Positions 1,796-6,183 of a stretch of DNA of 17,398 nt are shown here, piece by piece; the stretch's first letter is position 1; every line of letters starts with the position of its first letter. The translations under genes and the position numbers were made by a program. Source of the DNA: a virus (taxonomy: Duplodnaviria > Heunggongvirae > Uroviricota > Caudoviricetes); the IMG/VR virus record IMGVR_UViG_2778261177_000007, positions 1 to 17,398 of that record; one strand, given 5' to 3'. The notes below the pieces were generated by a model. The model did not search any database. It was given only the letters and a program-made list of their open reading frames with translations, and was not told where the DNA came from.

Positions 1796-2014
1796 TCACA
1801 GTCCCCATTGTTTGTTCTTAAGTTCGATCTCCTCCTGGCAACTTGCACAAGTCCGACAACCCTGAACGGCCAGGCGTCTTCGTTCATCTATCGGATCGCC
1901 ACACTCACAACAATGAGTGGCAGATATAGCCTGGTGGTTCAGGCGGCGCATTTTTATTGCTGTGTTGCGCTGTAATTCTTCAATTTCTGATGCTGAATCA
2001 ATGATGTCTGCCAT
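1796..2014 (-). CDS. TraR/DksA-family C4 zinc-finger protein
   Basis: 72-aa ORF with two CxxC pairs (CCECGD...CRTCASC) and a C-terminal layout typical of phage/plasmid TraR-like RNAP-binding zinc-finger proteins. Confidence 0.8.
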   Translation of the reverse strand: MADIIDSASEIEELQRNTAIKMRRLNHQAISATHCCECGDPIDERRRLAVQGCRTCASCQEEIELKNKQWGL

Positions 2015-2112
2015 CTTTCATTAATCCCTGAATTGTTGGTTAATACGCTTGAGGGTGAATGCGAATAATAAAAAAGGAGCCTGTAGCTCCATGATGATTT
2101 TGTTTTTCATGT

Positions 2113-2394
2113 TCACCGTTCCTTAAAGACGCCGTTTAACATGCCGATCGCCAGGCTTAAATGAGTCGGTGTGAATCCCATCAGCGTTACCGCTTCGCGG
2201 TGCTTCTTCAGTACGCTACGGCAAATGTCATCGACGTTTTTATCCGGAAACTGCTGTCTGGCTTTTTTGATTTCATAATTAGCCTGACGGGCAATACTGC
2301 GAAGGGCGTTTTCTTGCTGAGGTGTCATTGAACAAGTCCCATGTCGGCAAGCATAAGCACACAGAATATGAAGCCCGCTGCCAGAAAAATGCAT
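2113..2394 (-). CDS. Hypothetical early-left protein (true start may be the internal ATG at 2328, giving 71 aa)
   Basis: 93-aa ORF; the N-terminal 22 residues are Cys/His-rich and look non-native; the internal Met (MTPQQENALRSIARQ...) gives a more protein-like product. No strong SD at either start. Confidence 0.45.
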   Translation of the reverse strand: MHFSGSGLHILCAYACRHGTCSMTPQQENALRSIARQANYEIKKARQQFPDKNVDDICRSVLKKHREAVTLMGFTPTHLSLAIGMLNGVFKER

Positions 2395-2404
2395 TTAGTG
2401 GTTG

Positions 2405-2596
2405 TCATACCTGGTCTCTCTCATCTGCTTCTGCTTTCGCCACCATCATTTCCAGCTTTTGTGAAAGGGATGTGGCTAACGTATGAAATTCTTCGTCTGT
2501 TTCTACTGGTATTGGCACAAACCTGACTCCAATTTGAGCAAGGCTATGTGCCATCTCAATACTCGTTCTTAACTCAACAGGAGATGCTTTGTGCAT
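2405..2596 (-). CDS. Lambda orf63-like small protein
   Basis: 63-aa ORF, 192 bp, overlapping the downstream orf60a-like gene by 28 nt, which reproduces the lambda orf63/orf60a arrangement upstream of exo. Confidence 0.6.
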   Translation of the reverse strand: MHKASPVELRTSIEMAHSLAQIGVRFVPIPVETDEEFHTLATSLSQKLEMMVAKAEADERDQV

Positions 2597-2751
2597 ACCG
2601 CCTCCCGTTTATTATTTATCTTCTCAGCCAGCCGCTGTGCTTTCAGTGGATTTCTGATAACAGAAAGGCCGGGAAATACCCAGCCTCGCTTTGTAACGGA
2701 GTAGACGAAAGTGATCGCGCCTACCCGGATATTATCGTGAGGATGCGTCAT
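2569..2751 (-). CDS. Lambda orf60a-like small protein
   Basis: ORF in the position of lambda orf60a; starting at the third codon ([15 protein letters not shown]...) gives 60 aa and the 4-nt overlap with exo seen in lambda. The ORF track's longer version starts at 2757. Confidence 0.6.
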
Positions 2752-3428
2752 CGCCATTGCTCCCCAAATACAAAACCAATTTCAGCCAGTGCCTCGTCCA
2801 TTTTTTCGATGAACTCCGGCACCATCTCGTCAAAACTCGCCATGTACTTTTCATCCCGCTCAACCACGACATAATGCAGTCCTTCACGCTTCATACGCGG
2901 GTCATAGTTGGCAAAGTACCAGGCATCTTTTCGTGTCACCCACATGCTGTACTGCACCTGGGCCATGTAAGCCGACTTTATGGCCTCGAAACCACCGAGC
3001 CGGAACTTCATGAAATCCCGGGAGGTAAACGGGCATTTCAGCTCAAGGCCATTGCCGTCACTGCATAAACCATCCGGAGAGCAGGCGGTACGCATACTTT
3101 CGTCGCGATAGATGATCGGGGATTCAATAACATTCACGCCGGAAGTGAACTCAAACAGGGTTCTGGCGTCGTTCTCGTACTGTTTTCCCCAGGCCAGTGC
3201 TTTAGCGTTAACTTCCGGAGCCACACCGGTGCAAACCTCGGCAAGCAGGGTGTGGAAGTAGGACATTTTCATGTCAGGCCACTTCTTTCCGGAGCGGGGT
3301 TTTGCTATCACGTTGTGAACTTCTGAAGCGGTGATGACGCCGAGCCGTAATTTGTGCCACGCATCATCCCCCTGTTCGACAGCTCTCACATCGATCCCGG
3401 TACGCTGCAGGATAATGTCCGGTGTCAT
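2748..3428 (-). CDS. exo: Lambda exonuclease (Red-alpha)
   Basis: 226-aa product recognised by eye as near-identical to phage lambda Exo ([37 protein letters not shown]...); 4-nt overlap with bet as in lambda. Confidence 0.95.
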
Positions 3429-4210
3429 GCTGCCACCTTCTGCTCTGCGGCTTTCTGTTTCAGGAATCCAAGAGCTTTTACTGCTTCGGCCTGTGTCAGT
3501 TCTGACGATGCACGAATGTCGCGGCGAAATATCTGGGAACAGAGTGGCAATAAGTCGTCATCCCATGTTTTATCCAGGGCGATCAGCAGAGTGTTAATCT
3601 CCTGCATGGTTTCATCGTTAACCGGAGTGATGTCGCGTTCCGGCTGGCGTTCTGCAGTGTATGCAGTATTTTCGACAATGCGCTCGGCTTCATCCTTGTC
3701 ATAGATACCAGCAAATCCGAAGGCCAGACGGGAACACTGAATCATGGCTTTATGCCGTAACATTCGTTTGGGATGCGACTGCCACGGCCCCGTGATTTCT
3801 CTGCCTTCGCGAGTTTTGAATGGTTCGCGGCGGCATTCATCCATCCATTCGGTAACGCAGATCGGATGATTACGGTCCTTGCGGTAAATCCGGCATGTAC
3901 AGGATTCATTGTCCTGCTCAAAGTCCATGCCATCAAACTGCTGGTTTTCATTGATGATGCGGGACCAGCCATCAACGCCCACCACCGGAACGATGCCGTT
4001 CTGCTTATCAGGGAAGGCGTAAATTTCTTTCGTCCACGGATTAAGGCCGTACTGGTTGGCGACGATCAACAATGCGATGAACTGCGCATCGCTGGCATCA
4101 CCTTTAAATGCCGTCTGGCGAAGAGTGGTGATCAGTTCCTGTGGGTCGACAGAATCCATGCCGACACGTTCAGCCAGCTTCCCTGCCAGCGTTGCGAGTG
4201 CTGTACTCAT
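3425..4210 (-). CDS. bet: Lambda Bet (Red-beta) single-strand annealing protein
   Basis: 261-aa product recognised as near-identical to lambda Bet ([66 protein letters not shown]...). Confidence 0.95.
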
Positions 4211-4215
4211 CCGCT

Positions 4216-4512
4216 TTATACCTCTGAATCAATATCAACGTGGTGGTGAGCAATGGTTTCAACCATGTACCGGATGTGTTCTGCCATACGCTCCTGAAAC
4301 TCAACATCGTCATCAAATGCACGAGTAATGGCTTTTTTGCTGGCCCCGTGGCGTTGCAAATGATCGATGCAGAGTGATTCAAACAGGTGCTGTGGAAGAC
4401 CTTTTTCCATGTCGTCTGCCAGTTCTGCCTCTTTCTCTTCACGGGCGATCAGCTGGTAGTGACGTGCCCAGCTCTGAGCCTCAAGACGATCCTGAATGTA
4501 ATAAGCGTTCAT
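4216..4512 (-). CDS. gam: Gam, RecBCD inhibitor (short GamS form only)
   Basis: 98-aa product matching the C-terminal 98 residues of lambda Gam ([19 protein letters not shown]...VDIDSEV). The upstream long-form N-terminal coding sequence is present but out of frame and truncated. Confidence 0.9.
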
Positions 4513-4587
4513 GGCTGAACTCCTGAAAATGGCTGTGAAAATATCGCCCGCGAAATGCCAGGCTGATTAGGAAAACAGGAAAGGGGA

Positions 4588-4878
4588 TTAGTGATTCAGG
4601 CCGTTACCGCGTCCGTCGAGAAAAACTTCCACGAGCAAATCACGGGTATAAGTGCGCTCGATGCCGCGATGCAGATATAGCCGTCCGCGTAAATTAGCTG
4701 ATGCAGTCCAGGTACCATCTTTGTGTTTGACCAGCATTCCTGGCATGACCGCACCTCGATTAACGGTCTGCGTTCCGTAATGTTGATGAACCATAAAAAC
4801 TCCTGCCCGTAAGCTGGGCTGCTGAACATATAGAGACTTCTGCGCGTATTCAGGCGGTGGATGGCCGCCGGTTGTCAT
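4588..4878 (-). CDS. Hypothetical protein, first ORF downstream of the putative pL (in the N/kil/cIII position)
   Basis: 96-aa ORF with ATG start and a GAGG about 10 nt upstream. No recognisable family and no N-like arginine-rich motif. A competing 77-aa ORF (4596..4829) in another frame lacks an SD. Confidence 0.4.
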
Positions 4879-5049
4879 AACTAAGCCGCCTCGTTGAAGC
4901 GACTAAGGTATGAAATGTTGAGTTGATTTCAGCTGGTCACACCGACGTTCACGCGTCCGTTTCACCCCTCGCACTCCCCGAAGCCTGCTGAAATTCAAAC
5001 TGCGGATCTAAGCGGTCATCGCAACGGTGAATCAGGTAGTTGCCGTATC

Positions 5050-5130
5050 GTTGTGTTGTTGCGATGAACTTATTTAAAACTATAGTTGTTTTATCGTCAA
5101 CAACAAAAGTTGTTTTATTGGTTGTTTTAG
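5050..5130 (-). promoter_or_regulatory. Putative pL promoter with oL-like operator repeats
   Basis: On the minus strand: -35 TTGACG (rc of 5095..5100), 17-bp spacer, -10 TTAAAT (rc of 5072..5077). Embedded in GTTGTTTTA / CAACAAC repeats. A roughly 30-bp module (TTGTTGA..AAAACAAC.ATAGTTTTAA) is shared with the pR side. Confidence 0.45.
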
Positions 5131-5238
5131 ATATAACTGGTTGTATTTAGGATGGATTTATTTTGTGACTTGAATCGCATAGCGATAACTGAAGCGAGGT
5201 TATGGTGGTTTTTTTAACGGTGTGTGTGATGAGGGGAG

Positions 5239-5268
5239 GGCAAAAGAAAACCCGGCACGGTGACCGGG
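5239..5268 (-). terminator. Intrinsic terminator downstream of the repressor gene (tImm-like)
   Basis: Minus-strand RNA CCCGGUCACCGUGCCGGG forms a GC-rich stem and is followed by UUUUCUUUUG. Lies about 120 nt after the repressor stop, between the repressor and the pL/oL region. Confidence 0.65.
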
Positions 5269-5389
5269 ATTCTTACGCCGTTAGGTAAAGATATTATTGC
5301 GGTGGCTTAATATTACTACCTAGAGCAAAGATAGGAATTAGTTCTTTACTGAATGAGCACAATGCCCAGTTGATAATTTTTAATTGGTA

Positions 5390-6079
5390 CTACCCATGCT
5401 TCCTATATGTCTGCGGCATGCTCCCAATAACCTTACCGAAGATGAACACCCGGTTCATCTCGTCTTTCTCGATCGGGTCCCACGGTGAGTAGCTTTTGTT
5501 ATCAGAGATGACCAGCAGCTTATCCTTCATCATTTGCAGGCGCTTTACATGGGCTGTGTCGTCGTACAGAAACGCATAGATACCATCACCGTCGAAAGAT
5601 TTAACTGTGATATCAACGAACAGCAGATCACCTGGTTCGATCGTTCCTGACATGCTGTCACCACGCACGTTAATGATGCGGATATTTTCCGCCTTCCTAC
5701 CATCGAACATGTGACGAGCATCGTCAAACGAGTACTCAACCGAGCGTAGAACTTCTACAAACTCACGGTTGATGACTCCCGGCCCAGCACTGACTTCTAT
5801 ATCAAGAACGTCAATCTTGAAGTATTTGGAATGGCTGACAGTTGATTGTATTGGTTGCACTGTACTGTCTGACATATTTCCAACGCCAGAAGATAACCAT
5901 TCTGCGCGCACACCCAAAGCGTTCGCGATCTCCACGATTTTAGTTGTTTGATTAGCTTTCCCTGTTTCGATTTTCTGAATAGCAGCCTGGCTAACCCCGA
6001 CCAAATCCCCAAGCGCCTTTTGTGTAAGGCCTCGCGCTAATCTGGCTTCTTTAAGTCTTTCTGAGAGTGTTGTTTTCAT
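5390..6079 (-). CDS. cI-like phage repressor (N-terminal XRE-type HTH, C-terminal S24 LexA-like peptidase domain)
   Basis: HTH segment LTQKALGDLVGVSQAAIQKIETGK; Ala-Gly autocleavage-type site (VSAGPG); S24 motifs (VRGDSMSGTIEPGDLLFVD, ...HVKRL). Start set at the internal ATG 6079 (MKTTLSERL...); the 251-aa ORF-track version from 6145 would begin inside the operator palindrome. Confidence 0.85.
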   Translation of the reverse strand: MKTTLSERLKEARLARGLTQKALGDLVGVSQAAIQKIETGKANQTTKIVEIANALGVRAEWLSSGVGNMSDSTVQPIQSTVSHSKYFKIDVLDIEVSAGPGVINREFVEVLRSVEYSFDDARHMFDGRKAENIRIINVRGDSMSGTIEPGDLLFVDITVKSFDGDGIYAFLYDDTAHVKRLQMMKDKLLVISDNKSYSPWDPIEKDEMNRVFIFGKVIGSMPQTYRKHG

Positions 6080-6183
6080 AGTCCAAATGTACAACCAAGG
6101 TTTTATTTCATCAAACGAAAATGGTTGTTGATTAAAAACAACCATAGTTTTAATCTTGATTCAAATTAACCACGGAGGTTGTT
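6080..6183. promoter_or_regulatory. oR-like operator region with divergent pRM/pR promoters
   Basis: Perfect 8-bp-arm palindrome ATGGTTGT-N9-ACAACCAT at 6121..6145 and a second ACAACC..GGTTTT site at about 6093..6108. Putative pR: -35 TTGATT, -10 TTTAAT, then the GGAGG SD of the cro-like gene. Confidence 0.5.

Follow-up and report, generated by a model that had tools for sequence, protein, structure and literature searches.

A gam leader haplotype with only a GamS frame, at a lambdoid module junction beside a probable KilR-type gene in the place of kil

Among the closest described counterparts of the locus analyzed here is gam of phage lambda (UniProt P03702; PDB 2UUZ, 5MBV), whose product has been described as two isoforms, GamL and GamS, both of which are active when expressed from plasmids (PMC5218532; PMC11610958). 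In the original lambda GenBank record, J02459.1, gam (32816..33463) is labelled 'gam (recombination;261)' and noted as submitted as bet, and cIII is labelled 'kil(host-killing;54)'; both labels are annotation slips in the deposited record. The gene next upstream in lambda is kil, and a second relevant inhibitor of cell division is KilR of the Rac prophage.

Here we describe the corresponding region in the window, by which we mean the whole stretch of 17,398 nucleotides that was analyzed (IMG/VR virus record IMGVR_UViG_2778261177_000007, Caudoviricetes). We propose, with high confidence, that this region combines a GamS-only leader haplotype with a lambdoid module junction at which a KilR-type gene replaces kil.

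The module junction and the gene in the place of kil

2748..3428, minus strand: exo (open reading frame list)
3425..4210, minus strand: bet (open reading frame list)
4216..4512, minus strand: gam in its short form, GamS, 98 aa (open reading frame list, Pfam, PDB, BLASTP)
4588..4794, minus strand: KilR-type cell-division (FtsZ) inhibitor gene, 68 aa, likely the real product (Shine-Dalgarno AGGAG at 4804..4800, profile matches, RefSeq)
4588..4878, minus strand: the longest version of the same reading frame, 96 aa (open reading frame list)
4591..4597, no strand: mosaic junction, inside the final two codons of the kilR-type gene (blastn, alignment, Stx-phage matches)

A blastn comparison with lambda 27000-46000 finds window positions 1819..4594 collinear with lambda 30418..33193, at 97.4% identity and with two indels in 2.8 kb (at 2267 and 4526), and finds no lambda similarity between 4594 and 7573. 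The homology ends 4 nt into the upstream reading frame of the window, inside TCACTAA, which holds the last His codon and stop of both that frame and lambda kil. An earlier note on this DNA had lambda-like sequence ending at about 4595, at the stop codon of the upstream reading frame, and both blastn and alignment bear this out with an end at 4594. The same note placed a mosaic breakpoint at the gam 5' end; the boundary at about 4594/4595 holds, with its location corrected: it falls at the stop codon of kil, and 75 nt separate it from the gamS ATG downstream.

Both an abrupt switch at a gene boundary and a recurring junction with alternative alleles are found here. Coverage of a 56-mer across the kilR-type/leader junction reaches at least 80% in 2,087 complete E. 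coli genomes; the counterpart with lambda kil is covered in 1,391. Over the full 4200..4900 segment, 15 deposited phage genomes match the window at 96-98% identity, and many Stx phages are alike only from 4594 rightwards (query position 307, corresponding to window 4594). This is the familiar lambdoid pattern in which modules are exchanged at gene boundaries. We propose that 4513..4600 comprises a non-coding gam leader and the junction of two standard lambdoid modules. The right side would be, in the order of leftward transcription, a lambda-type Red block of gam, bet and exo, 97% identical to lambda, and the gamS leader and ribosome-binding site belong to this block. The left side would be an early-left and immunity module unrelated to that of lambda, whose last gene, of predicted KilR type and 68 aa, would stand in the place of kil.

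Several profile and pairwise matches bear on the identity of this last gene. The 96-aa frame matches phrog_294, 'Kil protein for bacterial septation inhibition' (E 1.2e-38), from residue 20, and the product also matches NCBIfam NF008465, 'FtsZ inhibitor protein' (E 1.8e-17), with 63.1 bits, below the curated cut-off of 92. The 68-aa version aligns with Rac KilR over 61 residues at 36% identity (E 9e-13), Met1 on Met1, and 67 of its 68 residues, those that align, match without exception a 68-aa protein that RefSeq names 'phage encoded cell division inhibitor protein'. Because the internal Met is where the family matches and the RefSeq coding sequence start, the first 28 codons of the 96-aa frame are probably not translated. 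The 96-aa frame matches no Pfam family, Lambda_Kil (PF06301) included, a model against which lambda Kil itself scores 72 bits, and BLASTP gives no alignment between the upstream frame and lambda Kil. On these sequence matches, the gene is most likely a KilR-type putative FtsZ inhibitor of 68 aa. The matches to KilR-type proteins, together with the lack of similarity to Kil, suggest a gene that takes the position of kil and would do the work of lambda kil without being homologous to it. The 'unrelated 96-aa ORF' of the earlier note thus gives way to a KilR-family FtsZ-inhibitor homologue, likely of 68 aa, that would be the analogue of lambda kil in both position and function.

The neighboring immunity module encodes an HTH/S24 (LexA-like) repressor, a cro-like frame and a frame with a YdaT domain (PF06254; 6484..7023). 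Because PF06254 is named after YdaT of Rac, a KilR-type identity for the upstream gene fits its surroundings. The interval 4879..5389, between the repressor gene (5390..6145, minus strand) and the kilR-type gene, holds no N-like antiterminator frame and no reading frame of at least 40 aa; a strong terminator-like site lies between the same two genes at 5268..5251 (minus strand). The region upstream of the kilR-type gene has no DNA similarity to Rac, including the KilS sRNA.

Three features elsewhere in the window are recorded here as separate observations. A full-length Rfam match to isrC, an Hfq-binding sRNA (RF01387), lies at 15890..16012 on the minus strand, with 135 bits against a gathering score of 39. 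Downstream of replication genes O and P, 8987..12895 (plus strand) encodes a 1302-aa inverse autotransporter, intimin/invasin-like, with an IAT_beta domain and with Big_1/Invasin_D3 repeats, and the adjoining 12932..13975 (minus strand) encodes a 347-aa alpha/beta-hydrolase (BD-FAE). These last two look like cargo (moron) genes.

GamS and its leader haplotype

4520..4524, minus strand: gamS Shine-Dalgarno AGGAG, 7 nt before the ATG at 4512 (sequence)
4526..4531, minus strand: haplotype-defining site CATTTT (TATTT in lambda), one T longer than lambda at 4529..4526 and with C at 4531 where lambda has T
4513..4587, minus strand: kil-gam spacer, the 75-nt gamS leader, non-coding; its +1 frame holds a relic of lambda GamL codons 16-40 (three-frame translation)
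4536..4563, minus strand: terminator-like hairpin (4563..4546) followed by a T-tract, inside the kil-gam spacer (consensus scan only)

The 98-aa product is identical to residues 41-138 of lambda Gam at 94 of 98 positions (96%; BLASTP), and its residues 1-98 cover positions 1-98 of the 98-position Pfam family Gam, PF06064 (E 2.6e-63; 210.8 bits against a cut-off of 25). The same residues match the RecBCD-binding GamS chains PDB 5MBV_A and 2UUZ_A, which are 98-99 aa long, with E values of about 1e-59. The rest of the lambda Red block, bet and exo, is 98.2-98.5% identical to lambda and free of indels (blastn). RefSeq calls a 98-aa Gam in both leader haplotypes described below, including an O157:H7 prophage with lambda kil and TTT. 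Five more distant Gam homologues, at 68-74% identity (two from Citrobacter and one each from Klebsiella, Raoultella and an Enterobacteriaceae genome), all start at the Met equivalent to that of GamS with a Shine-Dalgarno sequence of their own, and in divergent homologues the Met at this place follows an (A/T)AGGAG or GAGG motif. None of the five has an in-frame upstream ATG, any likeness to the GamL extension or leader similarity past the neighborhood of the Shine-Dalgarno sequence. Taken together, the sequence-based evidence of the 98-position Pfam model, the structures, the RefSeq calls and the homologue starts says that GamS is the conserved unit.

We propose that Gam would be made here only as the 98-residue GamS, from the AGGAG at 4524..4520 and the ATG at 4512, and that GamS would then inhibit RecBCD as in lambda. 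The haplotype-defining site lies directly 5' of the gamS Shine-Dalgarno sequence. Because the extra T is 5' of that sequence and the spacing from it to the ATG is the same as in lambda, the insertion should not prevent translation of GamS.

The scan of genome contigs also returned GamS matches of 91-100% identity in assemblies of unrelated taxa, among them Shewanella, Pseudomonas, Neobacillus, Kitasatospora, Enterococcus and an Oxalobacter MAG (L243-L258 and L261-L273). The contigs that carry these matches are either about 48.5 kb long or tiny and of low coverage, and most likely represent lambda control DNA contaminating the assemblies.

Alignment of the minus-strand leader with lambda (NC_001416) gives GCCATTTTC at 4526-4531 in the window and GCTATTTC in lambda, that is, one SNP and a 1-bp insertion; in its wider context, the window reads CACAGCCATTTTCAGGAG where lambda reads CACAGCTA-TTTCAGGAG (alignment and blastn). 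The 1-bp insertion that the earlier note had proposed is therefore present, as the extra T at 4529..4526, and pairwise alignment with the lambda gam 5' region upholds the difference in frame that the note had drawn from it: the lambda frame is not the same here. Two further SNPs fall in the spacer, at 4560 and 4587. In all, an 82-nt stretch has four differences from lambda (about 95% identity; blastn), and a chance match can be dismissed given this identity over 82 nt within a 2.8-kb homologous block. The divergence of the leader is no lower than that of gamS (13/297). In close relatives the leader carries further length changes, with a C-run of 4, 5 or 6, and changes of stop codons, several of them independent. 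By these comparisons the leader behaves as non-coding, with its indels and stop changes in relatives, whereas exo, bet and gamS have no indel relative to lambda.

The spacer contains a weak terminator-like hairpin, GCCTGGCATTTCGCGGGC followed by GATATTTTCA, which is the equivalent of lambda 33162..33135, probably close to where lambda has a terminator of its tL2 cluster. Its base pair at 4560 survives the C-to-T SNP there as G-U, and no covariation is seen among haplotypes. The minimum free energy of the leader fold is not unusual (z = -1.7), and the leader has no Rfam match at E <= 1.

The two leader types are both widespread. In a search of 5,426 complete E. coli genomes, a 42-mer of the window haplotype, carrying GCCATTTTC, has 2,900 occurrences spread over 2,590 genomes, and a 41-mer of the lambda haplotype has 960 occurrences in 889; megablast cross-hits between the two are excluded because the queries have no 28-nt word in common. 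By these counts the window haplotype outnumbers that of lambda about three to one and makes up about three quarters of the lambda-type leader copies in these genomes. Because the sample is biased, with many clinical lineages that are related to one another, the 3:1 ratio is no measure of independent events. Exact-pattern scans of IMG/VR (...GCYATTTC... and ...GCYATTTTC...) returned at least 120 loci each, placing the SNP and indel of the window in at least 120 contigs; frequencies were drawn from the complete E. coli genomes instead. Among the matches listed in these scans (242 loci), TTT occurs with T in 121 of 121 and TTTT with C in 121 of 121. This complete linkage indicates two stable haplotypes rather than homopolymer miscounts or slippage. 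All four combinations of kil allele and T-run are found among the IMG/VR matches listed: lambda kil with TTT (108), kilR with TTTT (69), lambda kil with TTTT (42) and kilR with TTT (9). We conclude that the window leader is one of two old, stable haplotypes, and the commoner one in E. coli prophages.

The GamL frame: absence here, origin and alternatives

4604..4606, minus strand: TAA stop in the frame of the GamL-like peptide (translation)

As the earlier note had claimed, a peptide resembling lambda GamL is encoded in a different frame: three-frame translation places it at +1 with respect to the MNAYY start codon (4512..4510). The in-frame stop that the note had reported upstream is also there, as the TAA at 4606..4604, after which this frame has no ATG, GTG or TTG. 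The gamS frame itself has two upstream stops, at 4590..4588 and 4569..4567, so an uninterrupted frame with a start some 40 codons ahead of the GamS Met is absent from the window. The window also has no lambda-type kil, lambda homology ending at 4594, and with it lacks the GamL ATG and codons 1-14. GamL is thus excluded three times over: by the absence of the lambda kil segment with the ATG and codons 1-14, by the stop in frame and by the frameshift.

Because the 138-aa GamL frame depends on TTT in the leader as well as on a lambda-type kil for its ATG, it is confined to a minority of gam loci. Only 719 records carry the 126-nt lambda sequence of the GamL extension at 99% identity or more, from which we estimate that between about a fifth and a quarter of E. 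coli gam loci have an intact GamL frame. Among the IMG/VR matches listed, the frame is intact in 99 of the 108 loci with lambda kil and TTT. In 92 GamL-intact loci the GamL-specific codons have few variable sites (3, 4 and 7 by codon position, the last 34 nt being fixed by the search pattern), and their variant codons comprise 5 synonymous and 10 non-synonymous ones, too few variable sites for any constraint to be detectable.

These observations lead us to consider, as a proposition with about even chances, that the 138-aa GamL of lambda is a lineage-restricted by-product without selected function, so that GamS-only loci, at least about three quarters of the gam loci in E. coli prophages, would be natural GamL-nulls and the reference annotation would overstate the gene. 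GamL may arise where a lambda-type kil, with its out-of-frame ATG, meets the shorter TTT leader, and the polarity could be a gain in the lambda lineage and not a loss here. Because GamL is active from a plasmid (PMC5218532), its lack could have a phenotypic consequence invisible to sequence analysis.

The foremost alternative is that a functional GamL is ancestral and was lost here through kil replacement and frameshift, which would make the haplotype a true loss-of-function form, either costly or altered in its inhibitor spectrum. The activity of lambda GamL when expressed (PMC5218532) and the 40-codon extension still open in 99 sampled loci, among the matches listed, are consistent with this proposal. 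The outgroups conflict. An E. coli/Shigella gam-like locus at 81% amino acid identity (L259), the closer outgroup, reads CTATTTCAGGA, as lambda does. The more distant outgroups read CCAAATTTCAGGAG, with C as in the window, and have no upstream in-frame start; four of the five homologues at 68-74% identity (both from Citrobacter, the one from Klebsiella and the Enterobacteriaceae genome) read (C/T)CAAATTT(C/T)AGGA. Against an ancestral function also stand the GamL-incompatible haplotypes, which account for about 75% of lambda-type leader copies in E. coli genomes, and the independent breaks of the extension elsewhere, for example by C-run indels in 9 loci. We therefore consider an ancestral GamL, lost here at a cost, improbable. 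Because the outgroups conflict, lambda could equally have acquired the long frame. The central claim of the earlier note, that the GamL start is destroyed and only GamS is left, accordingly stands in part: the 138-aa frame is impossible here and a 98-aa GamS frame with its own Shine-Dalgarno sequence remains, but a lesion is not established, the haplotype being the majority state in E. coli prophages.

The Gam-like frame of L259 is found, together with L260, on the chromosomes of E. coli ECMA0423 and Shigella flexneri SFBU1023. At 81% identity, it lacks a MNAYY or MAAY start and has a diverged N-terminus, and may be a decayed copy or have a different start.

It is exceedingly improbable that the extra T is a homopolymer error of sequencing or assembly and that the true genome has the lambda frame. 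A short T run is the type of site that some platforms miscount, but the insertion is accompanied by a substitution 2 nt away, to which it is linked at all 121 loci of its haplotype among the matches listed (as is the shorter run at all 121 of the other), and the exact 42-mer recurs throughout the complete genomes counted above (2,900 occurrences in 2,590 of them), which were sequenced by many laboratories on many platforms. Moreover, restoring TTT would still give no GamL, because the lambda kil with the start and first 14 codons is absent and the TAA at 4606..4604 intervenes.

Slippage or recoding at the T run, whether as phase variation or as programmed frameshifting that joins an upstream frame to gamS, merits just as little credence: the kilR-type frame and gamS do share one reading frame in the window haplotype, and one IMG/VR contig (L163) without both intervening stops has a predicted fusion frame, but 3-4 T in a row are too few for slippage to be frequent, the complete linkage of the run to the neighboring SNP points to stable inheritance, two in-frame TAA stops part the reading frames here, the +1 frame has no start codon, and neither a significant predicted RNA structure (z = -1.7) nor an Rfam match is found.

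The contig L163, whose gamS ATG lies at 7329 on its minus strand, has lost both of the in-frame TAA stops that part kilR from gamS elsewhere, one now reading TAC and the other GAA, which predicts a single KilR-spacer-GamS fusion frame, in this one contig only. Such a fusion is possible only in the TTTT haplotype, because it is there that the kilR-type frame and gamS share a frame.

Returning to the reading of a GamS-only haplotype at a module junction, we conclude that the one-base difference from lambda is a real and ordinary natural variant, which removes an optional long frame and leaves the conserved 98-residue RecBCD inhibitor intact.

Comparison with known systems

The locus is ordinary, widespread and already annotated: RefSeq lists both the 98-aa Gam and the 68-aa cell-division inhibitor. 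Its practical value is modest and twofold. For annotators, the 138-aa gam coding sequence of lambda is not the conserved gene model, and for those who work with "GamL" constructs, most natural gam loci can encode GamS only. The locus would also serve well in a textbook: a lambdoid module junction falls cleanly at a stop codon, and the kil genes that occur to one side of it are not homologous yet would be alike in function.

The window resembles lambda gam in its 98-aa product, its place upstream of bet and exo, its Shine-Dalgarno sequence and its ATG, and differs in the extra T with the linked SNP in the leader and in the upstream gene. The extra T and SNP, together with the different upstream gene, account for the absence of the 138-aa lambda reference frame. 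Lambda Kil (47 aa, PF06301) occupies the same position as the upstream gene of the window, has an annotated role in the inhibition of cell division and ends on the same final His codon and stop, without detectable sequence similarity.

Rac KilR (E. coli K-12 b1352, an FtsZ inhibitor of 73 aa) is similar in length to the product of the window gene and 36% identical to it, and likewise belongs to the early leftward operon of a prophage with a YdaT-like protein; in the window the YdaT-like frame lies beside the cro-like frame. The Rac locus has no DNA similarity to the window, and the window gene is followed by the lambda Red genes, not by recET. The 3' end of the window gene, its final two codons and stop, is common to lambda kil, which also sets it apart from KilR of Rac.

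Close relatives are lambdoid phages and prophages with the window arrangement. The Escherichia phages PhiR47_2, PhiR34_1, 4A7, Lambda_4C10, Perceval, Turner and others have the same kilR-type/gam junction and the TTTT/C leader, and the immunity region of PhiR34_1 is 99.7% identical to that of the window. Some of these relatives carry inserts, such as the GevT/GevA insert between the kil-type gene and cI in PhiR47_2. At the gam leader and the junction, there is no difference of substance between these phages and the window.
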